This document shows positions 210 through 49,311 of a stretch of 63,703 nt of DNA, one piece after another. The DNA comes from an uncultured Thermotogae bacterium (GTDB lineage: Bacteria; Bipolaricaulota; Bipolaricaulia; CAYUCE01). Each line of letters opens with the position of its first letter. The first letter of the stretch is position 1. The notes under the pieces are model-generated. The model saw only the letters and a list, made by a program, of their open reading frames with translations, made no database searches and was not told the origin of the DNA. The DNA lies in the NCBI GenBank assembly GCA_964443275.1, contig CAYUCE010000003.1, positions 1-63,703 of the forward strand, in the 5' to 3' direction. The translations under genes were made by a program, and so were the position numbers.

Positions 210-1919
210 TTAGGTAAGTTCTCTCACTTTATTTACTATCTCTTCAATTCCTTTATCCATACTAATAGTTATTTTGCTTCCATTAGCTCTCTTTTGTATT
301 TCCACCTGGTTATTTTCTATTCCCCGCGGACCAATGATAATGCTTACCGGAATTCCTATAAGCTCGGCGTCATTGAATTTTACCCCTGCACTTACCTCTC
401 TATCATCGTATAGGCACTGGATTCCACTGGATTTAAGTTCATCATAAATTTGATCGCCCAACTCTTTTTGCTTTTGTTGGTCCGTATTCAATACCAAGAC
501 GGTGCAGGAAAAGGGGGCAACAGACGGAGGCCAAATTATACCCTTCTGGTCATGGTGTCTTTCAATAGCTGCGGCCATCAGTCTTCCCAACCCTATACCG
601 TAACAGCCCATGATAATGGGGTATTCGCGCCGATCTTGGTCCAGAAAATTGGCCCCTAGGCTGGCGCTGTATTTAGTCCCCAGCTTAAAAATATGTCCCA
701 GTTCTATCCCATTAAGTATTTCTAATTGACTCCCGCATCGCGGGCAGGGGTCACCATCACGTACATAAGCTATATCTACCACTTGATCGGCCTTAAAATC
801 TCGTGGGTAGTTTACGTTTTTGAGATGGTAACCTTCTTTGTTTGCCCCGGCTACCAAATTGGTGCTACAAGCGATGGACTTATCGACTATTACTTTGACC
901 CCCTCTTCTAAACCTATAGGTGAAGCATAGCCCGGAACGGCTCCTACCTTTTTTATATCCCCTTCACTGGCCGCCTCCAGTTCAGCGGACCCCAAAGCCC
1001 GGGCTAATTTACCTTCATTTATAGCCAAATCTCCCCGGATGAGGGCAAAGATGAGTTGATTATCCTCACCTTTGTAAAAAACCACCTTGGCTGTCTTGCT
1101 CTGGGGCATCTCTAGGTAGCCAGCTACTGCTTCTATGCTCCGCATACCCGGGGTGGCAACTTCCTCTATTTCTAGCTCTTCTTCACTGTCTTGGGGGTAA
1201 CCGCTCGATTTGGCGCTGTCCAGATTAGCTGCGTAACTACAGCTTTTACATCTGGCTATGTAATCCTCCCCATCCTCATTTATCTGCATAAATTCATGGG
1301 AATCCGAGCCCCCCATGATGCCCGGATCCGCCTCTACCTCAATGGGGTCCAAACCGCAGCGGCTGAAAATATTAATATATGCCTGACTTATCTTTAGGTA
1401 AAACTGATCCAGATCTTCTTTTGTAGCGTGGAAGCTATAGGCGTCCTTCATGGCAAATTCCCTAGCTCTTATAAGCCCACCTCGGGGACGGGGTTCATCT
1501 CTAAATTTGGTCTGTATTTGATAGAGCATCATGGGCAATTGCCGATAAGAGTTGACAAAGTGGCGTATGATGTCCGTAATCACTTCCTCGTGAGTTATTC
1601 CCAATACCATGTCCCGCTCTTTTCGATCTTTAAATCGGGCAAGCTCTGGTCCTACCGTGTACCATCGCCCGGTTTCCTGCCAGAGTTTGGCCGGATGCAC
1701 TATAGGCATCTGTAGTTCCTGACCCCCAATCTTGTTCATTTCATCCCTGATGATTTCGGCAATGTTAGTTAACACTCGCCATCCCAACGGTAGGTAACTG
1801 TAAATTCCGGCGGCCAGCCTTTTCAGCATTCCGGCCCGAATTAATAGTTTGTGACTTACCATCTGTGCATCTTTTGGATCTTCCTTCAAGGTGGGCATTA
1901 AGTACGTTGAAAGCCTCAT
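210..1919 (-). CDS. proS: prolyl-tRNA synthetase, bacterial type with INS editing domain
   Basis: 569 aa ORF. Class II motif 2 (FRDEPRPRGGLIRAREF) and motif 3 (GCYGIGLGRL) are present, with INS and anticodon-binding domains. GGGAGG SD upstream of the ATG. Confidence 0.95.
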   Translation of the reverse strand: MRLSTYLMPTLKEDPKDAQMVSHKLLIRAGMLKRLAAGIYSYLPLGWRVLTNIAEIIRDEMNKIGGQELQMPIVHPAKLWQETGRWYTVGPELARFKDRKERDMVLGITHEEVITDIIRHFVNSYRQLPMMLYQIQTKFRDEPRPRGGLIRAREFAMKDAYSFHATKEDLDQFYLKISQAYINIFSRCGLDPIEVEADPGIMGGSDSHEFMQINEDGEDYIARCKSCSYAANLDSAKSSGYPQDSEEELEIEEVATPGMRSIEAVAGYLEMPQSKTAKVVFYKGEDNQLIFALIRGDLAINEGKLARALGSAELEAASEGDIKKVGAVPGYASPIGLEEGVKVIVDKSIACSTNLVAGANKEGYHLKNVNYPRDFKADQVVDIAYVRDGDPCPRCGSQLEILNGIELGHIFKLGTKYSASLGANFLDQDRREYPIIMGCYGIGLGRLMAAAIERHHDQKGIIWPPSVAPFSCTVLVLNTDQQKQKELGDQIYDELKSSGIQCLYDDREVSAGVKFNDAELIGIPVSIIIGPRGIENNQVEIQKRANGSKITISMDKGIEEIVNKVRELT

Positions 1920-4356: not shown

Positions 4357-4528
4357 GAGAGGCGGTTATTTCAACTGCCAGATTAGGTGCAGATTATGTG
4401 AGTCTTTCTCTGGATTAATATAGATATCGAATCTATGTCTTTGCCTATTTGGAGCATATTATTTTATACTTATCCGTTATTTTGTTAAATTTTCGCAAGA
4501 TCATGTATTTATGGAAAGAGGCAATCTT

Positions 4529-6492: not shown

Positions 6493-6534
6493 ATAAAAAC
6501 CTAAATTGAGCTTGCCCGGTAATCTTTATAATCT

Positions 6535-7028: not shown

Positions 7029-8195
7029 TTGAAGAGCAGATTATGGTTTATGTTAGCCGTGGTGGCTGTCTTAGTGGGTGCATTTATCTACCTCTGGTTT
7101 CAAGGGGGGTTAAGCCCATTTTCTAAAAGGAGCGAAGTAAATTTACTGATTTTGGGGCTGGATCAGGTGGAGGGAACCAGTAGAAGTGATACCATTATCG
7201 CAACCAAGGTCCGAAGGTCAAATATAGATGCAATATTTGTTCCTCGGGACATGAGAGTAAAATTCCCTAACGGGGAGCTTGACAAAATAAATTTCTCCTA
7301 CCATAGGGGTAAAGTAAAGCTAACTAAAGAGGTTGTTTCCTCCTTTCTAGATTTTCCCTTGCAGTACTATATAATCGTCGATTATCAGGGATTCGAGAAC
7401 ATAATTGATATTTTAGGTGGGGTGACTATTGATGTAGAAAAGGATCTTGACTATGAGGACGAATCTCAAAATTTGTATATTCATATCCCCAAGGGCAGAC
7501 AGCATCTTTCGGGCGAAGAAGCTCTCAATTATGCTCGTTATCGGGGTGAACTAGGGGATCTGGGAAGGATCGAGAGACAGCAAAAATTGATAAAAGCACT
7601 GCTTAATAAAGGAATACAGTTCAAAGGATGGGACAAGTTGAAGGAGCTTGTTAAAACAGCCTATCAATACATCGAAAGTAACCTCTCTTTAGTTGATATG
7701 TACGGGTTAGCCAGATTGTTGGAAGGGATAAGCGTTGATCAGGTCAGGATTGAGAGGGTTCCCGGAACTCCAGTGACCATAGAAGGGGTAAATTTTTTGG
7801 AACCGGACATTGTAGGAACAAAAGAATTGATAAACGAGCTAATGAAGGGGATGGATATACTTACCAATTCCGATATCAAGGTCAGCGTCCTTAACGGAAA
7901 CGGGGTTTACAGAATGGCTCACCAAGTGGGAGAGTATCTAAAAGAGAAAGGGTTCACCATCGACCATATTGGTGATGCTGACACCTATAATTACGAGCAA
8001 AACCATCTGCTTAATTTATGTCAAGATGAGAGAAAACTAACCAAATTAAAAAGAGCCTTGCAGGCTGAACTGAAAGTGGTGCAACCAGAGGGGTTTTCAG
8101 ATCATCTGGACAAGATAAAGAGAATAACCGGTTATACTTTAGGGAGTGAAGATTTCGTATTTATATTCGGGAGTGGGTTTAATATTGGTGAATGA
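7029..8195 (+). CDS. LytR-CpsA-Psr (LCP) family protein
   Basis: N-terminal TM helix, LILGLD...SRSDTII and ALNYARYR motifs of the LCP domain, LytR_C-like C-terminus. Confidence 0.85.
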   Translation: MKSRLWFMLAVVAVLVGAFIYLWFQGGLSPFSKRSEVNLLILGLDQVEGTSRSDTIIATKVRRSNIDAIFVPRDMRVKFPNGELDKINFSYHRGKVKLTKEVVSSFLDFPLQYYIIVDYQGFENIIDILGGVTIDVEKDLDYEDESQNLYIHIPKGRQHLSGEEALNYARYRGELGDLGRIERQQKLIKALLNKGIQFKGWDKLKELVKTAYQYIESNLSLVDMYGLARLLEGISVDQVRIERVPGTPVTIEGVNFLEPDIVGTKELINELMKGMDILTNSDIKVSVLNGNGVYRMAHQVGEYLKEKGFTIDHIGDADTYNYEQNHLLNLCQDERKLTKLKRALQAELKVVQPEGFSDHLDKIKRITGYTLGSEDFVFIFGSGFNIGE

Positions 8196-8950: not shown

Positions 8951-10540
8951 TTGAACCTCCTTTTAGCCAGAGCTAGACGAATACTTGGAGTAGGTAGAAT
9001 CTTTGCTCGCCACGTAATTTCACACCTCTTTCGACGGTTGGTTCACCGAGAAGAAAAGTCCTTTGCTTGCAGGTTTAGGCTAATTTTGGAGGATTTGGGA
9101 CCCCTCTTTGTAAAGTTCGGGCAAGTAATGAGTACCCGTCCGGATTTGCTTCCTTCCGATTACTTGCAAGAGCTACAAAAGCTACAGGATGCAGTCACCC
9201 CTTTTGATTTGCAAAAAGCAAAACAAGCAGTGGAAAGGGAGCTTAACAAACCTCTGTCCGAACTTTTCGTAAAGTTTTATTCACAGCCCAAAGCCAGTGC
9301 CTCTTTAGCCCAGGTGCACAAAGCGGTGTTGCACTCCGGCAAACAAGTAGCAGTGAAAGTGCGAAGACCGGACATAGAAAAGCAGCTAGAAGAAGACATG
9401 GAAACGCTACACTATTTTTCGGTGATTCTTTCTCGATACATTGGATATTTTCGACGTATGAGATTAAAGGAGGCAGTAAGTGAGTTTAGAAGGATAGTCC
9501 AATTGGAGATCGATTTCTCTAACGAAGCCCGCAATATACAACGTCTAAGAAAGGCCTTTAGTGATCGTCCACAGGTGAAAATTCCCCAAGTGCATCACTC
9601 AACTTCCAGCCTGCTGGTATTGGAATGGATTGAAGGAACTAAAATTAGCGATCGGGAGAGGCTTTTAGGTGAAGGTTATTATCCTCCTGATCTGGCCCGT
9701 TTAATAGCCGGGGTTTGGATTGAGCAGATCTTTAAAAAGGGGCTATTCCACGCCGATCCTCACCCGGGTAATATACTCATAATGTCCAAGCGGAAAGTGG
9801 GGTTGGTGGACATGGGGGTAATTGGAGTGTTAAATAAGGAAGATCGGGAGAATTTGGCCAGCTTATTCCGGGCTATCCTTCAAAGAGATGCCGGTCAAAT
9901 TTATCAGCTGCTCATCCGGATGAAAGTTTTTAACCAAAATAATGAAAACAAAAACCTACGAGAGGAAATCTCCAAGCTCCTAAACAAATATTATGGGAAG
10001 AAGCTTCGGGAGATTAATCCGGGAAACTTGATATACGAAATAATGGGCAGATTATTTAGACAGTATGAGATTGATCCCCCTGTTCGATTTATCACTTTGG
10101 CCAAAACACTGGTAACCCTGGAAGCTGTTTGTGAAGACCTCGACCCGGATTTTGAGTGGACAAAGGTACTACAGAAAGAATTTGGTCCCCTCTATCTTAA
10201 AAAACTATTATCAATGAACTTGATTGAACAATTGATAGGCTTTTTTACTTTGCCCCAGCGGGTAGATCGGATATTGGAGCTGATCGAGGAGGATAAAGGC
10301 ACAGATCTGCCGAATTATAGGGCCAGGAAGCAACCGACAAAATCCTACCCTGGTTGGAGCAGGAGTCTTTCCTTGGGGTTGGTGGCTTTTTCGTTGATAT
10401 TAGGTTCAAGTTTTCTTATCACAGAAGGTGCAGGCCCTCTTTGGAAGGGTGTTTCAGTCTTGGGGCTTGCGGGATATCTTGCCGGTGGATTTGTCAGCCT
10501 GCTACTGTTGACAAGAATTTTCATATCTGATAGAATTTAG
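8951..10540 (+). CDS. UbiB/ABC1/AarF family atypical kinase
   Basis: FVKFGQ..STRPDL, ASLAQVH, VAVKV.RP, HADPHPGN motifs; C-terminal TM helices. Confidence 0.85.
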   Translation: MNLLLARARRILGVGRIFARHVISHLFRRLVHREEKSFACRFRLILEDLGPLFVKFGQVMSTRPDLLPSDYLQELQKLQDAVTPFDLQKAKQAVERELNKPLSELFVKFYSQPKASASLAQVHKAVLHSGKQVAVKVRRPDIEKQLEEDMETLHYFSVILSRYIGYFRRMRLKEAVSEFRRIVQLEIDFSNEARNIQRLRKAFSDRPQVKIPQVHHSTSSLLVLEWIEGTKISDRERLLGEGYYPPDLARLIAGVWIEQIFKKGLFHADPHPGNILIMSKRKVGLVDMGVIGVLNKEDRENLASLFRAILQRDAGQIYQLLIRMKVFNQNNENKNLREEISKLLNKYYGKKLREINPGNLIYEIMGRLFRQYEIDPPVRFITLAKTLVTLEAVCEDLDPDFEWTKVLQKEFGPLYLKKLLSMNLIEQLIGFFTLPQRVDRILELIEEDKGTDLPNYRARKQPTKSYPGWSRSLSLGLVAFSLILGSSFLITEGAGPLWKGVSVLGLAGYLAGGFVSLLLLTRIFISDRI

Positions 10541-10607
10541 CTTGAGTTCTAGTAAACCTACTTTAAAATCTGGTAAAAAGTAGGGAAAAATAGTTTATAC
10601 CGAGTCC

Positions 10608-10636
10608 TTGACAAACCAGAGGGTATGTGATATACT
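10608..10636 (+). promoter_or_regulatory. sigma70-type promoter of the 23S-5S-tRNA-Asn unit
   Basis: TTGACA (10608-10613), 17-nt spacer, TATACT (10631-10636), about 105 nt upstream of mature 23S. Confidence 0.6.
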
Positions 10637-10695
10637 GACTTTGCTCACACATACCTTATAAACGATCTTAATAATTAGCTTGTGAAAGAGCCATG

Positions 10696-10707
10696 GTTCT
10701 TTGAAAA
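10696..10707 (+). promoter_or_regulatory. boxA-like antitermination element in the rRNA leader
   Basis: GTTCTTTGAAAA matches 9 of 12 positions of the boxA consensus GCTCTTTAACAA and sits in the expected leader position. Confidence 0.3.
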
Positions 10708-11303
10708 GTTAATACGTCTGTCGAGAAAGGGATTAACAAGAAGGTTTGATGTCCTAAAGGCAGAAAGGGCAGACGGTGGATACCTAGGTAATCAGAGGCG
10801 ATGAAGGACGTGGCTGGCTGCGATAAGCCTCGGGGAGCCGCCAAGCAGGCTTTGATCCGAGGATTTCCGAATGGGGCAACCTGCCTGGATGAAGTCCAGG
10901 TATCTGCTGCCCGAATTACAGTAAGGCGGCAGAGGCAAACCCGGGGAAGTGAAGCATCTTAGTACCCGGAGGAAAAGAAACCAAACGAGATTCCCCTAGT
11001 AGCGGCGAGCGAAGAGGGAGGAGCCCAAACTTGGCTAGCGTCAAGGCTGCATCCGTTGTTAACCAAGGGTTGTAAGTTTGATCCATCTTATCCATGCAGG
11101 GGTAAGGAAGAGAACTTGTATCTAGTCGAACGGCCAGCAAAGTCACTGGAAAGGGCGACCGGAGAAGGTGATAGTCCTGTAGGCAAAAGGTACAAGGAAT
11201 CTTTGTGATCTTACTTGAGTAGCGTCGGGCACGTGAAATCCGGCGTGAAGCTGGGAGGCCCACCTTCCAAGGCTAAATACTCCTGATTGACCGATAGTGG
11301 ACT

Positions 11304-11334
<31 letters not shown>

Positions 11335-11387
11335 GGAAGGGGAGTGAAATAGAACTTAAAACCGTCTGCTTACAGACAGTGGGAGGA

Positions 11388-11471
11388 GAGCAGTGGTTCA
11401 ATGTTCTGAAGTTCAACGTTCGAGGTTTTTTAACTTTGAACTGAGAACTTTGAACTACGAACTAGGCTTTC
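11388..11471 (+). other. helix-25 expansion / IVS-like hairpin inside 23S
   Basis: Lies between conserved CAGTGGGAGG and GACCGCATGCCTTTTG. The E. coli equivalent is about 14-20 nt; here it is 84 nt forming an imperfect long hairpin rich in GTTCAA/TTGAAC. Confidence 0.75.
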
Positions 11472-11879
11472 TGACCGCATGCCTTTTGCAGTATGAGCCG
11501 GTGAGTTACTCTATGTGGCGAGGTTAAGCGTAAAGCGTAGCCGCAGGGAAACCGAATGGTCTGAACAGGGCCAAAGTCATGTGGAGTAGACCCGAAGCCA
11601 GGCGATCTATCCGTGGCCAGGGTGAAGTCTGGGTAACACCAGGTGGAGGCCCGAACCCACCGAAGATGCAACTTCGGGGGAAGAGTTGCGGATAGCGGTG
11701 AAAAGCCAATCGAGCCTGGTTATAGCTGGTTCTCCCCGAAATAGCTTTAGGGCTAGCCTCCTAGTAATCAGTGGGGGGTAGAGCACTGGATGGATGAGGG
11801 CTAACCGATTCCAACCAAACTCCGAATACCTGCTGATGATCTAGGGGAGTCAGAACGCGGGGGATAAACTCCGCGCTCG

Positions 11880-11910
<31 letters not shown>

Positions 11911-12071
11911 CCCCCAAGTCCGGGCTAAGTGGTGAAGGTAGTTCCGTTGCTTAAACAGCTGGGAGGTTGGCTTAGAAGCAGCCATCCTTTAAAGAGTGCG
12001 TAATAGCTCACCAGTCTAGCGGTGGTGCGCCGAAGATTTAACGGGGCTTAAGCCCGGCGCCGAAGCTGCGG

Positions 12072-12145
12072 AAGGTTAGTAATCAGTCTTCAGCTTATAG
12101 CCTTTATGGTTTTTGGCTGATAACTGAGAGCTGATAACTAGCCTT
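12072..12145 (+). other. helix-45 expansion / IVS-like hairpin inside 23S
   Basis: Lies between conserved CGAAGCTGCGG and GGTAGGGGAGC. It is 74 nt versus about 22 nt in E. coli; the arms pair with several G-U wobbles. Confidence 0.75.
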
Positions 12146-12876
12146 GGTAGGGGAGCATTCCGCGGTAGGTCGAAGCCAGATTGCGAGGTCTGGTGGACGA
12201 TGCGGAAGAGAGACTGCCGGCATGAGTAGCGAAATCTGAGTGAGAATCTTGGACACCGAATGCCTAAGGTTTCCTGGGCAACGCTTGTCGTCCCAGGGTT
12301 AGGCGGTCCTAAGCCCAACCCAAAAGGGGTAAGTGATGGACAGCCGGTTAATATTCCGGCCCCTCTCTCAAACGTTGGGACTTGTTCCCTGAAGCGAAGG
12401 GGTGACGCTTTTGGCAAGGCTTTGCATGCTGACGGACGCGCATGCCCAAGCGCCGAGTAAGCGGGTGTAGGCAAATCCGCACCTGCGATGAGCAAGGCGT
12501 GATGGGGAGGGCCTACGGGCCCGAAGAAAGCTAAGTCAGAAGCCAAGAAAAACCTCTAGCGAGTTTGTGAGAGACCGTACCGAAAACCGACACAGGTAGG
12601 CGAGGAGAGAATCCTTAGGTGTACGAGCTAACTCTGGCCAAGGAACTCGGCAAAATGGCCCCGTAAGTTCGCGAGAAGGGGTGCCACCTTCGGGTGGCCG
12701 CAGTGAACAGGCCTGGGCGACTGTTTATCAAAAACACAGGACCCTGCCAACTCGAAAGAGGATGTATAGGGTCTGAAGCCTGCCCACTGCCGGAAGGTCA
12801 AGGGGATGGGTGAGAGCTCTGAACTGAAGCCCCGGTGAAGGGCGGCGGTAACTATAACCGTCCTAAGGTAGCGAAG

Positions 12877-12912
<36 letters not shown>

Positions 12913-12995
12913 CTAACGACTTGGGCGCTGTCTTGGCCAGGGGCTCGGTGAAATTGAAGTGCAGGTGAAAATGCCTGCAACCCGCGGCAGGACGG

Positions 12996-13034
<39 letters not shown>

Positions 13035-13359
13035 CTTGACCTATATCGTGCAGGATAGGTGGGAGGCTGTGAACCGAAGGCGCTAGCTTTCGGGGAGCCA
13101 CCCTTGAAATACCACCCTTTGTAGGTTGGGGTTCTAACCGGGCGTCCTTAATGGGGCGCTGGGACAGTGTCAAGTGGGCAGTTTGACTGGGGCGGTCGAC
13201 TCCTAAATTGTAACGGAGTCGTGCAAAGGTCCCCTCAGGCTGGTCGGTGATCAGCCTACAGAGTGTAAGGGCAAAAGGGGGCTTAACTGCGAGACATACA
13301 AGTCGAGCAGATGCGAAAGCAGGCCCTAGTGACCCGCTGGTTCTTCGTGGTAGGGCCAG

Positions 13360-13397
<38 letters not shown>

Positions 13398-13508
13398 AGT
13401 CCCTCCCGAGAGTTCACATCGACGGAGGGGTTCGGCACCTCGATGTCGGCTCATCTCATCCTGGGGCTGAAGCAGGTCCCAAGGGTCTGGCTGTTCGCCA
13501 GTTAAAGA

Positions 13509-13550
<42 letters not shown>

Positions 13551-13948
13551 CCTATCCGCCGTGGGCGTAGGAGACTTGAGGGGGTCTCTCCCTAGTACGA
13601 GAGGACCGGGAGGGCTGGATCGATGGTGAACCAGTTGTCCCGCCAGGGGCACCGCTGGGTAGCTAAGTCCAGACTAGATAAGGGCTGAAGGCATCTAAGC
13701 CCGAAGCTGACCCCAAGATAAGGTCTCCCTATCAGGTCCCTCCGAGACCAGGAGGTAGATAGGCCGCAGGTGTAAGCATCGTAAGGTGTTAAGCCGAGCG
13801 GTACTAATCGACCGATTGCCTTAATTTGGGCATCAAACCTTCTTGTTGCTTCCTTTCAGAGATTCAGGACCTGGGATTTAGATTCTAGGATTTAATAGGT
13901 TACTTTTAAGTTTTTCTAACCCCTAAATCCCGTATCCTAGCTTATTAA

Positions 13949-14063
<115 letters not shown>

Positions 14064-14167
14064 CTACCTTATTAGTTTTCAGTTACCAGTAGTCAGTTAT
14101 CAGCTTGAAAAAAACTTTATGTTTAAACCTGGTACCTGAAACCTAGTATCTGATACCTAAATCGCCT

Positions 14168-14242
14168 TCCTCGGTAGCTCAACGGCAGAGCGGCCGGCTG
14201 TTAACCGGTAGGTTGCTGGTTCGAATCCAGCCCGAGGAGCCA
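14168..14242 (+). tRNA. tRNA-Asn (GTT), CCA encoded
   Basis: Cloverleaf folded by hand: acceptor TCCTCGG/CCGAGGA, anticodon loop CTGTTAA, T-loop GGTTCGAATCC, 3' GCCA. Confidence 0.95.
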
Positions 14243-34329: not shown

Positions 34330-34699
34330 GGGGGTGTATGGAATCGACGAGTCGTGACGAGAGAAGCTTCAAGTGGAGCGCCTGCCAGCTCCTAAAACTG
34401 GCGGATCTAAACTTAAATGCCAACACTGGCATGACGAACACCGCACCGACAGCCGCAGTAGCGGTTTAACTGGTGCCGCTCCGTTGATCCTCGCCCACGG
34501 GAGCAACCGGAGTGTCGACTAGGTGGGCTAAACCTGCTCTCCTAGTGGCGGGAAAGCAGGTGAGAAAACAAGTCACTCGGGTGATGGGTCTGTGTCCCGT
34601 GAAGGCCCGTTACCTTAAACAAAAAACGCAGGACTAAGCTTGTAAACGTTTCTCTGGAAGCGAGCTCGGACGCGGGTTCGATTCCCGCCACCTCCACCA
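34330..34699 (+). ncRNA. ssrA: tmRNA (SsrA)
   Basis: 5' GGGGGTGTATGGAATCGACG and 3' GGACGCGGGTTCGATTCCCGCCACCTCCACCA form the tRNA-Ala-like domain. The internal tag ORF 34419-34469 reads ANTGMTNTAPTAAVAV*. Confidence 0.93.
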
Positions 34700-41079: not shown

Positions 41080-42168
41080 CTACCCATAGGTAACAAATTT
41101 TCCCAACTCTGTAAGGTCTAAATCAGCAATTCCCAGCTCTTTTACTGTGCGGCCTTTTTTCCAGTAATCAACTTGATTCATCACAGAAGCTAGCTTTATC
41201 AATGATTTCATAAGTGGACAAGGAATATTGGCTAAGTCACCTATTGACGCTAAGGTCACCAAACCATAAGGTACATCTTCAGTAATATATCTGTACTGAA
41301 GATTCGAAGCTGCTTTAATTTCCTCGCTTCCATAACAATTATTTATTGATTCCAAAAGTGTATCTTTCTCAGGACCAAAACCGACTCTCATATATAAATC
41401 CGCAAATGAAATTTGTTTTAATCCCAAAGCCTCCAGGGTGGCTAACCTCTCCGCATCTATGCCGTTATACACTCTAGCGATGGATGAAGTAACTCCTTCT
41501 TTATAAACGAGGAATTCGCTATTGGGATCCTCAATTCGCCCTGTGTTAAGTATCATGGGTGGTGGATGCAAAACGGCGTTGATATCGTGTAAGGTGGTTT
41601 CCAGGACGTTATCCAGAATGGTAGTGGAAGGATAGATTTCCTCGAGAATCTCCGCTAATTCATCATTGTCTTTTCCCGGAAGAGCTGCCGCAAATAGCTC
41701 ATTTACCGCGATAGATACCTTTACTTTAGCTGGTCCCTGAATACGAGCAGTATATGGTAGAGTATTTCCTTCTCCCAGCAAAATATCCTTGTCCGATCCC
41801 ATGTCCTTCATCGCCTTGGCGAAAACTAAAGAACCTCCGCCTTTCCCTAACAAGATGACTGCCTGGCCATCTTCAAGATGGGGGCCGCAAGCCTGGGCAA
41901 ATAGTTTATGGCCAAAAGCAGGTACCATGATAAGTATAACCTCAACGCCTTTCACTGCCTCCTCAATGTCTGTGGTCACCATATTTAACTTTGCAAATCC
42001 CTCTCCTGCATCCCCGCTAATTTCGATTCCATCACGCTTCAGTACGGGCTCAATATTCTCCTTGAAACGGGGCAGTTCGAATAGGTTTACCTCATAGCCC
42101 CTCAAGGTAAGATCAGCGGAGCCCGCATAGCCCCCATTCCCAGCACCTAAAATTGCAATCTTTCACAT
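41080..42168 (-). pseudogene. NAD(P)-dependent octopine/nopaline (opine) dehydrogenase family gene with ATG-TGA at codons 1-2
   Basis: The Rossmann segment KIAILGAGNGGYAGSADLTLRGYEVNLF is in frame upstream of the ORF-track start. It is preceded by TGA (42163-42165), ATG (42166-42168) and a GGGAGGTG SD. It may still be expressed. Confidence 0.6.
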
Positions 42169-42269: not shown

Positions 42270-43937
42270 TCAAATATCGGACTGATTTTTAAAATCTGTG
42301 TCATAAAATTCCTTAATTTTATCAATGAGTTCGCCTTCAGGGATCAAAATTGCTTCATCAGCTTCTCTTTCTTTCCATTCAATCCGCTCCTTCTCACATG
42401 ATTTCTTGCCTACTACCAACCGAATGGGTATCCCTAAAAGATCAGCATCATTGAACTTTACGCCAGGCTTTTTATTCCTATCGTCCCAAAGCACGTTTAT
42501 TCCGGCTTTCCTTAATTTGTTATAAACCTCTTCCGCTTTTTTTAAGATTTCCCTCTGTCTTCCCAATGAGACTAGATGAACTTGAAAGGGAGAAATTAAT
42601 GGCGGCCAAATAATCCCTTGATCATCCCAGCTATTTTCCAAAGCCAAAGCAAAAATTGTGGAAGTAAATATTTTGCAACTACCTAAAATAAAGGGATGAC
42701 GGTTTCCATCCTCTCCCATATAAGATATTTCCTGGTTAATCCCATCACGCGAGATGGGAGAGAAGGTGGCTAAATTTGCCGCTTTTACCAACTGTAAATC
42801 TCCCTTACCACATTTGCTGCAAGTTTCACCCTCCTTGACCTGTCTAACATCGTAGAATTCCTCGGGTTCAGGGACATCCCTGCCGAAATTTACATTTAAT
42901 AAATGATAATCCTTTTCATTAGCACCACATTCAAAATTTACCCGGCCTTCTGTGGTTAGATCCGCAATTAACTTAAGCTTATCCGGTAAATCCACAACTC
43001 CTGAGTAACCGACTTCAGCTCCGATCTCCTCCTTGATGGTAATGGCAGGTGCTAAATATAAATCCTCACCTACAATATGTTTTAACTTCTCCTCGCTCAC
43101 CTCGTATTCCCCCCTGATCATGACCACAATTAACCTGCGAGTTTCTTCAGTCTCAAAAATAAGAGTCTTGGTTATGGTGGGAACGGAAATGCCGGCAAAA
43201 TCAGCCAGATCTTCTACGCTTGTCAAATCAGGTCCGTAAATTCGCTTTAACGGCTTTTGCTCTTCGTCTTGAGGGTAGGTGGGAAAGCTTGATTTCGCAA
43301 GCTTATAAGGTGCAATATAGTCACACTGATTGCAGCGGAAGTACTCACCAGTACCTGAAGAAGTTTCTCCCAATAGGGAGAAACCAAGCTCGTTTTCGTT
43401 ATTACTAGTAGATGCTGATTCCCTTACTTGTAATCCCAATGATGAAAAAATCTGGGACAGTGCTTCCTTAAATTGAGAGGAGGTTTGCTTTTGTTCTTGG
43501 TTATCTTTATCCACAGAAAGTATGGTATAGGTATAGTTTCCCTCTCTATTTAATAAACAGCTTTTATTAGTAGCTAGGACTCGGCTGTACCCCAACTTTA
43601 CAGGGAGGTCTCGATAGGAGGATATATGATGCTCCAATAGCTCTATTAGAAATGAGAATAGAACTTGGTCATCAACTTGCTTTATGTTTTGATCTTCGGT
43701 TGATCCTTGATCTAGTGGAAGTGGGAATCCCACTTCTTGGACGTCTATTCCCTGAAGGTGCTTTCGAATAAGTCGAAGTAGATTGTTCCAGGCCCTTCGT
43801 CCTATGGGCAGTAGAATAGGTATCCTCTCTTTGGAAGAGTGAAGTAATCCTCCTTGAATTAGGTAAGCTTGGCCCTTTTCCAAGCTCCCACTCGGTAAAT
43901 TATGAGTAGTTCTTCCAAATACTTTGGAATATCTCAT
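42270..43937 (-). CDS. ProRS paralog: full length, INS and anticodon-binding domains retained, class II catalytic motifs degenerate
   Basis: Collinear with proS at 210-1919. Motif 2 FRDEPRPRGGLIRAREF is replaced by ATNKSCLLNREGNY. Motif 3 GCYGIGLGRL is replaced by GSCKIFTSTI. GANEKDYHLLNVN and IWPP..SPF..HLV...VKFNDADLLGIP are conserved. Confidence 0.85.
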   Translation of the reverse strand: MRYSKVFGRTTHNLPSGSLEKGQAYLIQGGLLHSSKERIPILLPIGRRAWNNLLRLIRKHLQGIDVQEVGFPLPLDQGSTEDQNIKQVDDQVLFSFLIELLEHHISSYRDLPVKLGYSRVLATNKSCLLNREGNYTYTILSVDKDNQEQKQTSSQFKEALSQIFSSLGLQVRESASTSNNENELGFSLLGETSSGTGEYFRCNQCDYIAPYKLAKSSFPTYPQDEEQKPLKRIYGPDLTSVEDLADFAGISVPTITKTLIFETEETRRLIVVMIRGEYEVSEEKLKHIVGEDLYLAPAITIKEEIGAEVGYSGVVDLPDKLKLIADLTTEGRVNFECGANEKDYHLLNVNFGRDVPEPEEFYDVRQVKEGETCSKCGKGDLQLVKAANLATFSPISRDGINQEISYMGEDGNRHPFILGSCKIFTSTIFALALENSWDDQGIIWPPLISPFQVHLVSLGRQREILKKAEEVYNKLRKAGINVLWDDRNKKPGVKFNDADLLGIPIRLVVGKKSCEKERIEWKEREADEAILIPEGELIDKIKEFYDTDFKNQSDI

Positions 43938-43994: not shown

Positions 43995-44521
43995 CTAATT
44001 ACTTAACCAGTCAAGACCCAGCTTGGATAGGGTTTCTCGAGTGGGGATTCCTTGTTTGTCCCATCCCCGAGCTCGGTAATACTCATCCAACATTAGATCA
44101 AAGTTCGATATTGCGCAGTCGGTCTCATCTTTATACTGTCCAAACTCCGGTACTTGCTTCATTCTTCATAGAAATAGTCGTATAATTCGTCGGCCTTTCC
44201 CCAAGAGTTGGATCGCCAATTTTTAGTTGGCCAATCTCCAGTTTCATCGCTTGCAGGTAAATCCCCGGTGGTGCCATGTTCCCTAAAAGATGAACTGGAT
44301 GGATGGTTAACCACGGTCTTCTTGGTTTCTTTAACTACCTCCAAGAATTCATCTGAATCTGCAATACTTACCTTTTCCGTGCCTTTTACAGCTATTGCCA
44401 GTAGATTCTTAGAACCCATAATTGCACCTGCTCCACATCTTCCGGCAGCACGTTCTCCAAACATGATTGTGGAAAATTTCACCAATTTCTCACCGGCATT
44501 CCCGATCGTAGCGACTTCAAA
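43995..44521 (-). pseudogene. aldehyde:ferredoxin oxidoreductase (AOR, tungstopterin) remnants
   Basis: Fragment 1 (44521-44159) reads VATIGNAGEKLVKFSTIM..AAGRCGAGAIMGSKNLLAIAVKG...WPTKNW. Fragment 2, in another frame (about 44155-43995), reads the AOR C-terminus MLDEYYRARGWDKQGIPTRETLSKLGL. About 300 codons of the catalytic core are missing. Confidence 0.75.
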
Positions 44522-44609: not shown

Positions 44610-45893
44610 TTATAGCACAAATTTCGTACCTATCGAAGCACCCTTCTCAGCCGGCTGTGCAAGCTGAGCGTAGGTTTTCAAAAAGCCTTTAGGGGCCTTG
44701 GATTTTGGTTTTTTCCAGCTCTTTAACCTCTTTGTAATTTCTGCCTGGGAAAGCTCTACCTCTAAGCTACGTTCAGGAATGTTTATTTTGATTAAATCTC
44801 CCTCATCGATTATGGCTAGCGGACCTCCTCTCGCTGCTTCAGGAGAGATGTGACCGATAATTGGACCCCGGTTAAAACCAGAGAATCTGCCATCGGTAAT
44901 CAGGGCAGTGGATTTATCCAAATTTCTTGACACTAAAGCTAAAGGTGTAGACATAAGCTCGTTCATGCCCGGTGCGCCACTTGGTCCTTGGTATTTGATC
45001 ACTATCACATCTCCTTGTTTTATTTCACCCTGCTTTACAGCTTGACAAGCCGCCAGATCACCTATAAAAACCTTCGCAGGACCCCTAAACCGTAACATCT
45101 CTTCTTTTATGGCTGAACTTCTAACTATCGAACCATGGGGACAGATATTGCCTTTTAAAACCGCTAATCCACCATCCTTGAGCAAGGGTTTATCAAAGCT
45201 ATAGATGACCTTCTCATCAAACGGCTTTGCGTTGTTTTTAATGTTCTCACCCAAGGTTACTTCATCTACCGTTAGGCAATCGAGGTTTAGAAACCTCTCA
45301 ACCTGATTTAATATGGTAGGCACGCCTCCGCTCTCATGTAAGTCCACTACAGTGTGTTCACCGCTTGGTTTAACGTTACATAAGAAAGGGACTTTCCTGC
45401 TATATCTGTCAAATGTCTCCAAATCAAGGTCTCTTTTAAGCTCATATGAAAAAGCCAAAAGGTGCAAAATTGCGTTAGTAGACCCTCCACTGGCTAAATA
45501 TGCAATCACAGCATTCTCCAGCGCTTTATCAGAAACGACTTTGGAAGGTTTGATATCATTTTCAACCAACTTGACTATCTTTCTTCCGGACTTTTTTGCT
45601 TCCCTGAGTTTCTGGGCAGAGTGGGCGGGAATGGTGGAAGTACCTGAGCGGGTCATACCTATTGCTTCGGATAGGATCTGCATAGTATTTGCTGTGCCCA
45701 TGACTGGGCAGGCCCCAATGCCAGGACAAGTAACCTCCTCCATGGCTAGAATTTCTTCTTCTGTTACCTCAGAAGTTCCTAAAGCGAAGGTAGCTTCCTC
45801 CAAATCCGGTTGAGTTATCACCTGACCTTTGTATCGGCCCGGGGCAGATGGCATTGACTTTACTTCCTTGCTCTTTGATACCTCCGCCTTCAT
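44610..45893 (-). CDS. IlvD/Edd-family dehydratase, N-terminally truncated (about 130-150 residues missing)
   Basis: Good match from ...CPGIGACPVMGTANTM to the C-terminus. It lacks the N-terminal domain, has no SD before the ATG, and no upstream fragment is present. Confidence 0.7.
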   Translation of the reverse strand: MKAEVSKSKEVKSMPSAPGRYKGQVITQPDLEEATFALGTSEVTEEEILAMEEVTCPGIGACPVMGTANTMQILSEAIGMTRSGTSTIPAHSAQKLREAKKSGRKIVKLVENDIKPSKVVSDKALENAVIAYLASGGSTNAILHLLAFSYELKRDLDLETFDRYSRKVPFLCNVKPSGEHTVVDLHESGGVPTILNQVERFLNLDCLTVDEVTLGENIKNNAKPFDEKVIYSFDKPLLKDGGLAVLKGNICPHGSIVRSSAIKEEMLRFRGPAKVFIGDLAACQAVKQGEIKQGDVIVIKYQGPSGAPGMNELMSTPLALVSRNLDKSTALITDGRFSGFNRGPIIGHISPEAARGGPLAIIDEGDLIKINIPERSLEVELSQAEITKRLKSWKKPKSKAPKGFLKTYAQLAQPAEKGASIGTKFVL

Positions 45894-45965: not shown

Positions 45966-46970
45966 CTAAATGATAAATCCTTCTTTAAATGGATCATTAG
46001 GGTCCACAATAAGTTGCTGAAACCCGGTTATGTAAGCAGCACCTGTGATTTCGGGTTTAACTGCGACATGATTTCCTACCCTCGTTTCTTCTAGAAGCCT
46101 TCCTTCGAAAATACTCCCGATAATACTTTCATGCACGAAAGTTTCATTTAATTCCAGCTTTCCTTTCGAGTATAAAGAAGCCATTCTAGCACAAGTCCCT
46201 GTGCCACAGGGAGATCGATCGACTGAAGATTGACCGAAGATCACTACTTCTTTAGCATCTGCCCGGGGATTAGAGGGCTTATCATAAATCATGGTCCCGT
46301 TAAAAATTGGCTGAATTGAGGGATCGGGATGCTTTAATTTAACCTGCTGTTTAGCAGCTTCACGTATAGCCTTTTCCTCTTTAATAAGCTCGTTTATTAC
46401 CTCCGGCCTTATAGCAATACTTAACTCCTTTGATGAGACAAATATGTACCAATCTCCACCGAATGCTATATCTACCTTTATCACTTTCCCACTCTGTAAC
46501 TGTAATTCAAAGTTCTCTTTATAAAGAAAAGAAGGTACATTTCTAAGGGTGACATTTTCAACGGAGTTATTTTCTATCTTGGCACGAACCTTTACCAAAC
46601 CAGCTGGAGTATCTAACAAAAGAGTTGTTTCAGGTTTTTTAATTTCAACAATCCCTGTCTCAAGCAGCACGGTAGTAGCTCCTATAGTGCCATGGCCACA
46701 CATATCCAAGTAGCCAAGTGAATCAAGGAAAAGAATACCCGCATCGGCTTGGTCAGAGCATGGGTTTACAATAACCGCTGCCACCATGTCGCGATGGCCC
46801 CTCGGCTCACGTACTATCATTTTGCGTAGACTATCGTAATTTTCCTTAAAGTAATCCCTTTTCTCTGCCATCTTTTTCCCATAAATTTTAGGCATCCCGC
46901 TTAACACTACTCTTGTTGGTTCCCCCGCGGTATGAGAATCGACTACGTTTATAATTCTTTCCGATTTCAT
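45966..46970 (-). CDS. proline racemase family protein (Cys/Cys type: proline racemase or 4-hydroxyproline 2-epimerase)
   Basis: DSHTAGEPTR, DMCGHGTIG and SPCGTGTCA motifs. Both catalytic positions are Cys. Confidence 0.9.
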   Translation of the reverse strand: MKSERIINVVDSHTAGEPTRVVLSGMPKIYGKKMAEKRDYFKENYDSLRKMIVREPRGHRDMVAAVIVNPCSDQADAGILFLDSLGYLDMCGHGTIGATTVLLETGIVEIKKPETTLLLDTPAGLVKVRAKIENNSVENVTLRNVPSFLYKENFELQLQSGKVIKVDIAFGGDWYIFVSSKELSIAIRPEVINELIKEEKAIREAAKQQVKLKHPDPSIQPIFNGTMIYDKPSNPRADAKEVVIFGQSSVDRSPCGTGTCARMASLYSKGKLELNETFVHESIIGSIFEGRLLEETRVGNHVAVKPEITGAAYITGFQQLIVDPNDPFKEGFII

Positions 46971-47028: not shown

Positions 47029-47922
47029 TTAGGAAAGTTTCCCTAACTCCCGCAACTCTTTCTCAATATTCGATCTGACCGCATCTGGTACATCAATTAT
47101 AGGGAAAGGAGAAGGTCCCACCGATTCACCTATAAGATTCAGCGCTTCTTTTGTACCGTAGGGATCAGCAGCCGTAGCTTTAATTATAGGTAAAATTTTT
47201 AACTGCATTTCCTTTGCTTCTTCTAGGTTACCCTTTTGGAAATTGTCATAGATGGAAGCAACTTCTTCGGGAATTACATTTGCCACCGTACAGATTGCAC
47301 CAGCCGCTCCCACAATAAGCAATTGTAAGAGTTGGCTGGCAAAGCCTTCTAGAATTGCGATTTTACCCTTGGTAAGTCGGATCAGCTCGGTGGTATGGAC
47401 AATATCGGTGGTGGCGTCTTTCATTCCCGCGATTATTCCTTGATCAGCAAGTCTGGCCACAGTCTCGGGCTCCAGATTAAGCCCAGCATGCTGACCAGGC
47501 CAAGCGTAAACCAATACAGGAATAGAGACGTTTTCGGAAATCATCCTATAATGCTGATATAGACCTTCTTGGGTAGGTTTAGGGTAGTGAGGAACAGCTA
47601 CGGTTACTCCATCTGCACCCACTTCTTCAGCATATTGCGATAGCTCAATGGTTTTTTTGGTGGAGTGAAAACCCGCGCCTGCCAGACAAGGCACGTCCCC
47701 ATCCACTGCTTCTACACCAGCTTTAATTAAATCCTTCAGTTCTGAATCTGACAAAAGAGTATATTCACCAGTACTTCCAGCTACGAATATACCATGTACG
47801 CCTTTGTCGATCTGCCAGCGAATAAATTCAGCGGTTCTGTCCAGATCTAGATTTCTATCTGAGTCGAATGCGGTAACGACTGGTGGAATTACACCTTTGA
47901 ATTCCGTCATGATAGCGATCAC
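47029..47922 (-). CDS. DapA/NAL-family class I aldolase or deaminase (dihydrodipicolinate synthase family)
   Basis: GIFVAGSTGEY motif and Schiff-base lysine context GMKDAT. Confidence 0.88.
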   Translation of the reverse strand: MIAIMTEFKGVIPPVVTAFDSDRNLDLDRTAEFIRWQIDKGVHGIFVAGSTGEYTLLSDSELKDLIKAGVEAVDGDVPCLAGAGFHSTKKTIELSQYAEEVGADGVTVAVPHYPKPTQEGLYQHYRMISENVSIPVLVYAWPGQHAGLNLEPETVARLADQGIIAGMKDATTDIVHTTELIRLTKGKIAILEGFASQLLQLLIVGAAGAICTVANVIPEEVASIYDNFQKGNLEEAKEMQLKILPIIKATAADPYGTKEALNLIGESVGPSPFPIIDVPDAVRSNIEKELRELGKLS

Positions 47923-48141: not shown

Positions 48142-49311
48142 ATGAAGATAGAAAGTATCCAGAAATTTCCTCTAATGTTAACTACTAAAAAACAGGCATG
48201 GATTGAGGATGAGTATGTATGGCCATCCAAAGTTCCTTCGGTTATTATCAAAATGAATACAGATAAAGGAATCTCCGGGGTCGGTGAGGGGACAAGCCAG
48301 TTATGGTATCTCGGGGAAACACTAGAACACATCATGAAACTAATCGAGTTATTTGAGGAAAGATTAACAGGAGAGGATCCAACCAATATTAGCAAAATAC
48401 ATGAAATCATGAACCATACTGCTTCTGGAGGAGCCCCATCTAGTAAATCCGCCTTCATGGCAATTGACATGGCAGCTTTGGACATAATTGGAAAAGCTCA
48501 GGAAAGGCCAGTTTATGATGTCCTTGGAGGCGCTTATCGTACAAAATTCGAACTATTAACGAACCTTTATCAAAAAGATCCTCAGTCAATGACTGAGGCC
48601 TGTAAAAAATATGTGAGTAGAGGCTTTCGCGGTCTTAAAATTAAAGTTGGAGATGTATTATTAAATAGAGGTTGGAGTAAGCAGAATTTCAATGAAGAAA
48701 TCGATAAATTGTTTGCGGCACTGGAAGCTGTACCTGATGAAACTTATGTAGATGCTGATGCAAATCAGGCTTGGAAAAGCCCTAAATTAACTGTAAACAC
48801 AGTGCAAAGAAAACTGAACGAATTCACTAATCTTTCAATTGAACAACCACTTCAATACTTTAATATTTCAGGACATAGTTATGTGAGAAAGTCTATTGAT
48901 TGCCCAGTAATTCTTGATGAATCTGTACTTTCACCGGAAATGATGATTGAAATTGTTAAGCAAGAGGCGGCTGACAGAATCGTACTGAAATTAAACAGAG
49001 TAGGAGGCCTTTGGCCTTCTCATAAAATAGCAAACATTGCTGAAGCTGCATCCATTGGGATAAGCGTGGATACAAACCCTTTCACAAAAATTGGAGATAC
49101 CGCACTTTGTCATTTAGCCGCAACTATTAAGGACCCTTACCCGGTAGATGCTGAAGGGCATATCTCATTTTTAGAATCGCTTGAGATTGAGTCCTTTCAA
49201 GGAGGTATTGAGATTAAAGATGGATGTGCAGTTTTACCAGATACTCCGGGATTAGGAATAGAAATAGACGAAGATAATCTTAAAACATATGTTACTGAAG
49301 TGGACCATTAG
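48142..49311 (+). CDS. enolase-superfamily enzyme (MLE-subgroup-like racemase/dehydratase)
   Basis: KxK (LKIKVG); metal ligands in DADANQAW, IEQP, ILDES; second-base Lys in VLKLNRVGG. Confidence 0.88.
   Translation: MKIESIQKFPLMLTTKKQAWIEDEYVWPSKVPSVIIKMNTDKGISGVGEGTSQLWYLGETLEHIMKLIELFEERLTGEDPTNISKIHEIMNHTASGGAPSSKSAFMAIDMAALDIIGKAQERPVYDVLGGAYRTKFELLTNLYQKDPQSMTEACKKYVSRGFRGLKIKVGDVLLNRGWSKQNFNEEIDKLFAALEAVPDETYVDADANQAWKSPKLTVNTVQRKLNEFTNLSIEQPLQYFNISGHSYVRKSIDCPVILDESVLSPEMMIEIVKQEAADRIVLKLNRVGGLWPSHKIANIAEAASIGISVDTNPFTKIGDTALCHLAATIKDPYPVDAEGHISFLESLEIESFQGGIEIKDGCAVLPDTPGLGIEIDEDNLKTYVTEVDH

Follow-up and report, generated by a model that had tools for sequence, protein, structure and literature searches.

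A prolyl-tRNA synthetase paralog with a predicted dead synthetic site and retained editing and anticodon-binding domains, encoded beside putative proline/hydroxyproline catabolic genes in Bipolaricaulota

Introduction

Domains of the INS superfamily take part in the proofreading of tRNA-Pro. In bacterial P-type prolyl-tRNA synthetases (ProRS), such as E. coli ProS and the E. faecalis enzyme (2J3L), the INS domain is inserted in the body of the full-length enzyme, while the other members of the superfamily are single-domain proteins according to a 2024 review, and all characterised members are aminoacyl-tRNA deacylases (PMC11295145). Here we describe a protein which has the full length of a ProRS, keeps the INS and anticodon-binding domains, and has lost the residues of the synthetic site. 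It is encoded in a stretch of 63,703 nucleotides from an uncultured Thermotogae bacterium, placed in Bipolaricaulota by GTDB (assembly GCA_964443275.1, contig CAYUCE010000003.1, positions 1 to 63,703), and this whole stretch is called the window below. We refer to the protein as pseudo-ProRS.

Ala-tRNA-Pro deacylation by INS depends on the anticodon-binding domain of ProRS, which reads G35 and G36, and is not affected by mutations in the acceptor stem (PMC11295145). Within INS, the gatekeeper H369 (E. coli numbering) blocks the hydrolysis of Pro-tRNA-Pro and L266 tunes the side-chain specificity, and the loop signature of the superfamily is given as GXXXP/A (bioRxiv 10.1101/2020.09.11.293571). 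The free-standing factors YbaK, ProXp-ala/PrdX, ProXp-x and ProXp-ST1/2 have a homologous hydrolytic domain with a signature Lys and His, and for recognition they depend on the acceptor stem or on ProRS (PMC11295145, PMC7373986). ProRS lets larger proline analogues pass, its editing removing only the smaller ones, and E. coli puts hydroxyproline at proline codons once it has accumulated under high salt (PMC7934785).

Three described systems outside the INS superfamily are also close to the subject. The crenarchaeal ThrRS-ed, a synthetase paralog devoted to editing, possesses an anticodon-binding domain and hydrolyses Ser-tRNA-Thr in trans (PMC3592468, PMC11295145). CtdA is a stand-alone canavanyl-tRNA-Arg deacylase, which is induced by canavanine and protects against this analogue (PMC10018355). 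HisZ is a class IIa synthetase paralog without aminoacylation that is tied to amino-acid metabolism (PMC7373986).

Loss of the synthetic site in a full-length ProRS paralog

The preliminary description of the window, made from the sequence alone, had reported a 555-aa ProRS-like reading frame collinear with the canonical proS of the same window and carrying dead class II active-site motifs. It turned out that the two proteins are indeed collinear from end to end with 27% identity (BLASTP, E 3e-60), and all the motif strings quoted there are present (motif 2, motif 3, GANEKDYHLLNVN, IWPP..SPF and VKFNDADLLGIP). The gene starts with ATG, and the GAGGGA just 5' of it reads as a good Shine-Dalgarno sequence.

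The profile search proposed in that description gave only two Pfam domains in pseudo-ProRS, tRNA_edit (aa 236-350) and HGTP_anticodon (aa 452-543), with no match to tRNA-synt_2b (PF00587) at E <= 0.1; all three domains are matched in proS. With the NCBIfam ProRS equivalogs (NF006625 and TIGR00409), pseudo-ProRS scores 271.9 bits (cutoff 558), where proS of the window reaches 760 bits, and 206.9 bits (cutoff 306.7).

To compare individual residues, both window proteins were aligned to E. coli ProRS from NC_000913, and nine diagnostic positions of the synthetic site were inspected (T109, E111, R140, E142, R151, R153, G445, G447 and R450 in E. coli numbering). Pseudo-ProRS keeps none of the nine. 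In motif 2, FRDEPRPRGGLIRAREF of proS has become ATNKSCLLNREGNY, with each of the ATP-binding residues R140, E142, R151 and R153 replaced, and this region is 4 aa shorter and varies in sequence within the family. Motif 3 has changed from GCYGIGLGRL to GSCKIFTSTI, with G445, G447 and R450 gone. A deletion of about 21 residues, which is common to all family members, removes the THEE proline-binding loop. As for motif 1, its description as unrecognisable holds in part: the segment 'LWxETGR' and the THEE stretch that follow it are deleted, but the strand and proline ('VQEVGFPL') survive. With these residues lost, pseudo-ProRS is predicted to be unable to make prolyl-adenylate or to charge tRNA, and, as it lacks the defining ProRS motifs, it does not belong to the functional bacterial ProRS family.

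The fold appears to have outlasted the active site. An AlphaFold (AF2) model built from a 115-sequence alignment reached a predicted local distance difference test score (pLDDT) of 92.7 and a predicted template modelling score (pTM) of 0.90, while the model from the 11-sequence family alignment (pLDDT 62.6) was not used. The top Foldseek matches are all bacterial ProRS over the full length with template modelling (TM) scores of 0.75-0.81 (e.g. 2J3L, 5UCM and 8W8J), and the best match in the PDB is E. faecalis ProRS (2j3l, TM 0.80). In this model the entire ProRS body is kept, with INS inserted and the anticodon-binding domain at the C-terminus, which is the architecture of the P-type enzymes. 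Unlike them, pseudo-ProRS lacks the tested ATP, proline and motif 2/3 residues and the THEE loop.

The coordinates of these parts and of the other features discussed below are summarized in Table 1.

Table 1. Location of pseudo-ProRS, its domains, neighbouring genes and related features in the window and in loci of related proteins
Feature	Sequence	Coordinates	Strand	Basis or remark
Pseudo-ProRS gene, 555 aa	window	42270..43937	-	Full-length ProRS fold, aminoacylation site predicted dead; ORF, collinearity, model, residues
Degenerate N-terminal class II core, aa 1-215	window	43293..43937	-	Alignments; no PF00587 match
INS editing domain flanked by CxxC...CxxC, aa 216-399	window	42741..43292	-	Pfam tRNA_edit E 2e-16; family-invariant residues
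C-terminal core remnant, motif 3 replaced (GSCKIFTSTI), aa 400-445	window	42603..42740	-	Alignments
Class IIa anticodon-binding domain, aa 446-555	window	42270..42602	-	HGTP_anticodon E 4e-21; WDDRxKKPGVKFNDADLLGIP loop intact
Octopine/opine-dehydrogenase-family gene	window	41080..42167	-	Immediately downstream; Pfam Octopine_DH E 2e-39
Aldehyde:ferredoxin oxidoreductase (AOR) remnants	window	43998..44521	-	phmmer against intact L009 AOR; Pfam AFOR_N/AFOR_C fragments
IlvD/EDD-family dehydratase without ~130 N-terminal residues	window	44610..45893	-	Pfam ILVD_EDD_N, NCBIfam
Pro_racemase-family gene (proline racemase/4-hydroxyproline epimerase, Cys/Cys type)	window	45966..46970	-	Upstream; Pfam E 1e-118
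DHDPS-family gene, candidate pyrroline-4-hydroxy-2-carboxylate deaminase	window	47029..47922	-	Pfam DHDPS E 1.5e-66
Canonical proS, 569 aa	window	210..1919	-	All catalytic motifs and own INS (K279/D350/H369); directly downstream of ispG
174-178 aa ORF	L009	11747-12280		
174-178 aa ORF	L004	3547-4074		
174-178 aa ORF	L091	2203-2727		
174-178 aa ORF	L092	2021-2545		
Motif-3-only paralog	L015	9983-11713		
Motif-3-only paralog	L018	1643-3373		
Motif-3-only paralogs	L100, L101, L102, L109, L117, L130	~10001-11704		Match in long loci

Retention of the editing and anticodon-binding domains

Good conservation of the INS block and of the anticodon-binding domain had been noticed from the sequence, and the residues and profile matches agree with it. 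Lys257, Asp326, the gatekeeper His345 and Leu244 of pseudo-ProRS correspond to K279, D350, H369 and L266 of E. coli, and these four are invariant across all 11 full-length family members. Both CxxC pairs that P-type ProRS have at the INS hinges are retained too, at the base of the domain. In the anticodon-binding domain, invariant residues are common to the pseudo-ProRS family and canonical ProRS. Because INS deacylation needs the anticodon-binding domain and ignores acceptor-stem mutations, these two domains would in principle be sufficient for the hydrolysis of a mischarged tRNA-Pro.

Three positions of INS have changed in a way that is invariant in the family, and their frequencies were taken from 177 canonical ProRS. 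Position 270 (E. coli numbering) is changed from Leu to Ala (A248), a residue found in 0% of the canonical enzymes. Position 340, the terminal Pro of GXXXP, is changed to Val (V314), where canonical ProRS have Pro in 74% and Val in 3%. Position 371 is changed from Ile to Leu (10% of canonical ProRS). The loop itself is present in the family as GY[S/T/V]GV, ending in Val, whereas the free-standing INS factors end in Pro or Ala. Counted along the sequence, position 270 is one to two helical turns away from I263 and L266, and it may share a helix with these pocket residues.

The INS changes were also considered as a general signature of association with catabolism. This was rejected, as the operon-linked paralogs of Desulfobacterota described below keep L270 and P340.

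A family under purifying selection

In a search of 5.8 billion proteins, 13 clusters were found at 43-100% identity to pseudo-ProRS, and canonical ProRS follow at 36% identity or less. Precomputed Pfam annotation of these relatives gives tRNA_edit in all 13 clusters and PF00587 in none, with HGTP_anticodon in every cluster except one 376-aa fragment. About 13 relatives share 43-70% identity, and all of them are intact open reading frames (ORFs). Their named sources are Candidatus Bipolaricaulota, one of them being labelled "hypothetical protein" of a Bipolaricaulota metagenome-assembled genome (MAG). Among the GTDB species representatives, the sole close relative is in another Bipolaricaulota MAG (L009).

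The genes of all relatives with recovered DNA (10 of 10) are uninterrupted. For unsaturated pairs, the ratio of nonsynonymous to synonymous substitution rates (dN/dS, Nei-Gojobori) is 0.11-0.20 over the whole gene; the window gene and its nearest relative are saturated at synonymous sites. The INS has the lowest ratio of all regions (0.065-0.15), compared with 0.15-0.31 in the N-terminal core remnant and 0.15-0.54 in the C-terminal one. The mean pairwise identity in the family has the same order, with 0.67 in INS, 0.54 in the anticodon-binding domain and 0.28-0.48 in the core pieces (0.28-0.48 for the N-terminal core, aa 1-215, and 0.35 for the C-terminal core, aa 400-445). This is inverted with respect to canonical ProRS (n=5), where the motif 2 region (0.61) is above INS (0.38).

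Within the core, the pocket-forming regions of the old synthetic site have identities of 0.28-0.38 and dN/dS up to 0.54, and their sequences differ among members. Among its better-kept parts are the N-terminal helix and the motif-1 strand (LLPxGxxAW and VQExxFP, 0.48 identity). The degenerate N-terminal core is likely to be a scaffold or dimer interface. At otherwise invariant positions of the family, the window copy departs at 5 of 113, and the other members depart at 0-11.

Pseudo-ProRS is under purifying selection and is not decaying. The preliminary description had taken the open reading frame as an argument for selection and had named frameshifted homologs with elevated dN/dS as the mark of a decaying duplicate; the intact orthologs and low ratios bear out the former and show nothing of the latter.

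Gene neighbourhoods of the family

Most of the examined family loci resemble a hydroxyproline/proline catabolic cluster in their gene content. In two of them (L001 and L009, with orthologs 48-50% identical), pseudo-ProRS is the penultimate gene of a same-strand array. Next to a divergent GntR regulator gene on the opposite strand, this array begins with Fer2_4, Pyr_redox_2, Fer2_BFD, DAO and DHDPS-family genes and continues with AOR, a Pro_racemase-family gene, pseudo-ProRS and an M24 prolidase. L009, but not L001, has in addition an ORF of the 174-178 aa type between pseudo-ProRS and the prolidase. The gene set is similar to the lhp hydroxyproline cluster of P. aeruginosa, which comprises an epimerase, a three-subunit D-hydroxyproline dehydrogenase and a DHDPS-type deaminase. 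A full set of this type (epimerase family, DHDPS family, multi-subunit D-amino-acid dehydrogenase and aldehyde oxidiser) occurs in L001 and L009, and partial sets occur in L004, L007, L008, L090-L092, L094 and the window. In an anaerobe, AOR would stand in for the semialdehyde dehydrogenase, and the prolidase would feed the pathway.

In L004, L008, L091 and L092 the Pro_racemase-family gene is directly upstream of pseudo-ProRS. The closer relatives of the window (L007, L090 and L094) have the order (Pro_racemase)-DHDPS-pseudoProRS-opine-dehydrogenase-like, in which the DHDPS-family gene adjoins pseudo-ProRS and the opine-dehydrogenase-like gene has the same downstream position as in the window.

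For the window itself, the neighbouring proline-racemase-type gene of the preliminary description is real. Its product passes none of the cutoffs of the NCBIfam models for proline racemase (419 against 556), hydroxyproline epimerase (338 against 376) and trans-3-hydroxyproline (t3Hyp) dehydratase (343 against 540). The DAO complex is absent from this locus. AOR is reduced to two fragments, which match only aa 159-277 and 569-622 in a homolog of 624 aa, and in the truncated IlvD/EDD-family dehydratase the ILVD_EDD_N match begins at profile position 124 of 316 and the NCBIfam matches at about 131-150. An Rfam scan near pseudo-ProRS gave no T-box, riboswitch or other regulatory RNA, and scans for promoters and terminators at the locus stayed at chance level. 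Unlike the canonical proS, which lies beside ispG, the pseudo-ProRS gene lies in a putative catabolic operon, and this linkage suggests that the protein is made during proline/hydroxyproline consumption. The tie to proline-racemase-type genes, drawn before from the window alone, is kept across most family loci.

Several observations concern genes around these loci. The start of the opine-dehydrogenase-like gene is probably GTG at 42167, and not TTG at 42105 as in the ORF list, judging from the MKIAILGAGNGG Rossmann motif and a Shine-Dalgarno sequence GGGAGG. A divergent gene of the MR/MLE superfamily (48142-49311, + strand) has cis-3-hydroxy-L-proline dehydratase as its best named match, which is weak (135 bits against a cutoff of 500). 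The 174-178 aa ORF, for which neither Pfam nor NCBIfam gives a match, is found directly 3' of pseudo-ProRS in the P0005-P0008 subclade. The subclade of the window lacks it and has the opine-dehydrogenase-like gene in that position. Besides, just downstream in L004, a Bipolaricaulota MAG, there are a glycyl-radical enzyme (PFL-like and Gly_radical) and a radical S-adenosylmethionine (SAM) activase (4225-7463, - strand). The former could be of the trans-4-hydroxy-L-proline dehydratase type and thus a second hydroxyproline route.

Degenerate ProRS paralogs in other groups

The family profile was run against 1.84 billion representatives at 50% identity, and it turned out that the family (3 representatives, 654-935 bits) is followed by a continuum of ProRS-like proteins. 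With a full-length filter of 480-700 aa, 137 matches beyond the family were obtained. More than half of them (77 of 137) keep at most 4 of the 9 catalytic residues, while K279, D350 and H369 are kept in all 77. Similarly, tRNA_edit and HGTP_anticodon are matched in every one of the 77, and tRNA-synt_2b is matched in 30 and lost in 47. The number of degenerate clusters, counted at 50% identity, is at least 77 (from P0121-P0267). Acidobacteriota, Planctomycetota and Clostridiales are among the groups that contain them, and their source names include "prolyl-tRNA synthetase" and "hypothetical protein", with one "YbaK/EbsC family protein" (NCBI). The degenerate paralogs thus have a sizeable distribution, which is apparently unrecognised.

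Not all of them are found in catabolic surroundings. In degenerate loci of Acidobacteriota and Planctomycetota (L010, L041 and L074), the neighbours are housekeeping genes and no catabolic link was seen; these paralogs may serve other roles, e.g. editing for a ProRS without INS. In further degenerate loci (L053, L064 and L075) the neighbours are non-catabolic as well.

The neighbourhood survey proposed in the preliminary description covered 161 ProRS-like loci, most of which came from two scans of the collection that used a single pair of patterns. Each locus was inspected for homologs of the operon genes within 8 kb, and a ProRS with 9 of 9 catalytic residues was regarded as canonical. At least one catabolic neighbour was found in 29 of 62 non-canonical loci and in none of 99 canonical ones. 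A Pro_racemase-family neighbour was found in 18 of 62 and 0 of 99, respectively (Fisher p = 6e-9, with loci that are phylogenetically non-independent). The association with the catabolic genes is statistically strong across ProRS-like loci.

One group has a single change among the nine catalytic residues, in motif 3, where G445 is replaced by Cys or Arg ('GCYCLGVSR', 'GSYRMGVSR'). Of its 9 loci, 8 have a Pro_racemase-family gene next to the paralog, and its named sources are mostly Desulfobacterota. These motif-3-only paralogs may be minimally inactivated or specificity-altered ProRS. Other ProRS-like paralogs have an intermediate decay of the synthetic site. Taken together, the sequences form a gradient from minimally altered to apparently fully ruined synthetic sites, with INS always intact by its residues, and with repeated linkage to putative proline/hydroxyproline catabolic clusters. 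As a separate observation, MR/MLE genes recur near the Desulfobacterota paralogs (L018, L100, L110, L117 and L130).

Comparison with described systems

No description of a dead full-length ProRS with live editing was found in 8.3 million full texts, which were searched for inactive ProRS paralogs and for ProRS in hydroxyproline clusters; the earlier remark that no family with this architecture was known agrees with this. Compared with YbaK and the ProXp factors, pseudo-ProRS has a homologous hydrolytic domain and the signature Lys and His, but in contrast to their single domain it has a complete dead synthetase body and an anticodon-binding domain of its own. Like pseudo-ProRS, ProXp-ala (PrdX) of C. 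sticklandii has its gene in an operon of proline metabolism (prd).

By its mode of working, pseudo-ProRS seems most like ThrRS-ed. Judged from sequence and model, it matches the architecture of that protein (editing and anticodon-binding domains, no aminoacylation) and is predicted to act in trans likewise, which is an analogy and not a homology; the NCBIfam model of Ser-tRNA(Thr) hydrolase weakly matches its anticodon-binding domain. ThrRS-ed belongs to another synthetase family and has an unrelated DTD-like editing fold. It complements a ThrRS-cat without editing, whereas the host ProRS here keeps its own INS, and linkage to a catabolic operon is a feature of pseudo-ProRS that is not described for ThrRS-ed.

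By its regulatory logic, pseudo-ProRS would be most like CtdA, which is derived from a synthetase editing domain, acts alongside the metabolism of a toxic amino-acid analogue that it keeps from entering proteins, and has the closest functional logic to a tRNA-Pro editor in a catabolic operon. CtdA differs in having an unrelated fold (PheRS B3/B4), a single domain and tRNA-Arg as its substrate, and its activity is demonstrated, while that of pseudo-ProRS is predicted. HisZ shares with pseudo-ProRS the class IIa origin, the loss of aminoacylation and the tie to amino-acid metabolism. HisZ lacks the anticodon-binding domain and keeps the histidine-binding pocket; pseudo-ProRS, unlike it, has a decayed pocket and keeps the editing and anticodon-binding domains.

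Proposed function and alternatives

On balance, we hold that pseudo-ProRS is probably a trans-acting, tRNA-Pro-specific aminoacyl-tRNA deacylase, which is co-expressed with proline/hydroxyproline catabolism. A trans-acting deacylase with a dead-core scaffold is the most economical reading, because the editing module is kept and the synthetic module is lost. In this mechanism, the anticodon-binding domain would select tRNA-Pro through G35 and G36, the dead core would serve as a scaffold and probably as dimer interface, and INS would hydrolyse the wrong amino acid off the 3' end of tRNA-Pro released by the real ProRS, with the gatekeeper His sparing Pro-tRNA-Pro. Co-transcription with the catabolic operon would provide extra proofreading when proline analogues flood the cell or the ratio of proline to alanine shifts. 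Ala-tRNA-Pro, the canonical substrate of INS, is plausible, since both L266 and H369 have been retained and the ratio of proline to alanine falls with catabolism. Hydroxyprolyl- or other analogue-tRNA-Pro is also plausible, given the family-specific changes of the pocket and the passage of larger analogues by ProRS, and CtdA is a direct precedent for a logic of this kind.

Several points weigh against a deacylase of this kind. We infer the activity from conserved residues only; that it works in trans, and which amino acid it removes, are inferences too. The last residue of GXXXP, a signature of INS and ProXp-ala, is Val in the family, which might change the catalysis or make it weaker. It is also not evident why a second editor would be needed, because the INS in the canonical ProRS of the host looks functional. 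As to the catabolic link, the pathway flanking pseudo-ProRS in the window is partly eroded, although pseudo-ProRS itself is intact; the two most divergent members (P0010 and P0012, on short contigs of 2.7 and 8.1 kb), and only these, have no catabolic neighbours; and the NCBIfam scores do not separate proline from hydroxyproline as the substrate of the racemase-family enzyme, for which reason we speak of proline/hydroxyproline catabolism. Against hydroxyproline as the removed amino acid in particular stand Leu266 and the gatekeeper His, which point to a pocket for a small, Ala-like substrate. A bolder form of the proposal would make pseudo-ProRS a dedicated hydroxyprolyl- or analogue-tRNA-Pro deacylase, one of a widespread and unrecognised class of operon-encoded proofreaders made from killed-site ProRS paralogs, which microbes would turn on during growth on proline analogues, with an INS pocket remodelled (Leu270 to Ala, Pro of GXXXP to Val) for a ring larger than alanine and proline spared by the His. 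We regard this form as tentative and somewhat unlikely.

The preliminary description had left the choice between a trans-editor and a sensor of proline or tRNA-Pro. The former fits better. A regulatory pseudo-synthetase like HisZ, which binds charged or uncharged tRNA-Pro, or proline/hydroxyproline, and modulates the catabolic enzymes or their expression, with hydrolysis not as its purpose, would agree with the close and repeated operon association of the gene with those of catabolic enzymes and a GntR regulator, with the intact anticodon-binding domain, and with the precedent of HisZ, a HisRS paralog that has lost its activity and serves in histidine biosynthesis (PMC7373986). What makes it unlikely is the distribution of constraint: what is left of the amino-acid/ATP pocket shows the lowest conservation and varies from member to member, which makes a conserved small-molecule site there unlikely, while the strongest constraint is on the hydrolytic Lys, Asp and His of INS, which a pure binder would not need. 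The Rfam result, with no T-box or other RNA element near the gene, points in the same direction. It is likewise improbable that pseudo-ProRS heterodimerises or docks with the genuine ProRS, as a second editing site or to tune its activity during catabolism. In favour of this, class II synthetases form dimers, conservation within the core is comparatively good in the N-terminal helix and motif-1 strand, and YbaK depends on ProRS for finding its substrate (PMC7373986); but pseudo-ProRS is closer to the ProRS of other phyla (35-38% identity) than to that of its host (27%), and its own anticodon-binding domain would let it select tRNA without the help of ProRS.

A metabolic role that depends on tRNA but not on hydrolysis, e.g. 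holding aminoacyl-tRNA-Pro or delivering it to an enzyme of the cluster, or acting on a non-tRNA ester, is very unlikely in our view. In its favour are the family-invariant pocket changes (L270A, Pro to Val in GXXXP, I371L), by which the site is not simply canonical, and the conserved protein of 174-178 aa and no known family that is encoded behind the gene in one subclade. Such a role has no precedent in the INS superfamily, the characterised members of which are all aminoacyl-tRNA deacylases (PMC11295145), and the protein still has the catalytic Lys and the gatekeeper His. Finally, the destroyed catalytic motifs and the truncated AOR and IlvD-like neighbours in the window might suggest a decaying duplicate, with an ORF open by chance. 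This pseudogene reading has next to no credibility and is rejected, because the orthologs are intact (ten independent ones), dN/dS is low (0.11-0.20, and down to 0.065 in INS) and the window copy does not deviate more than the other members do; the good Shine-Dalgarno sequence before its ATG agrees with this, and identities of 43-70% exclude that the orthologs are assembly duplicates of a single population. The trans-acting deacylase is therefore the reading that we retain.

Other features of the window

The canonical proS has its closest named homologs in ProRS of Candidatus Bipolaricaulia (62%), and by this the organism falls in Bipolaricaulota. The window also contains 23S rRNA, 5S rRNA and tRNA-Asn genes in a row (10753-14242, + strand). 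Immediately upstream of the 23S rRNA gene, at the site of a linked 16S rRNA gene, there is a 529-aa ORF instead (8951-10540). Because this ORF fills the stretch, the 16S rRNA gene appears to be unlinked. A tmRNA gene is located at 34330-34699 (+ strand), with the tag ANTGMTNTAPTAAVAV.

Conclusion

In conclusion, dozens of divergent clusters of such proteins bear names like "prolyl-tRNA synthetase" in public data, and because of this, counts of aminoacyl-tRNA synthetase genes and metabolic reconstructions are likely to be misled for these organisms. Trans-editing of tRNA-Pro has been thought of as the task of small, single-domain INS homologs. If the proposed function is true, an anticodon-reading pseudo-synthetase would be a new solution to it, the bacterial ProRS counterpart of the archaeal ThrRS-ed. 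Its placement in putative proline/hydroxyproline operons would link translational quality control to the choice of nutrients, and offers a testable idea of how mistranslation is avoided in organisms which live on proline analogues, be they collagen-derived or osmolytes. Should the class of hydroxyproline deacylases also be real, it would point to a general principle, parallel to that of CtdA and canavanine, of degrading an analogue while barring it from the cell's own proteins.

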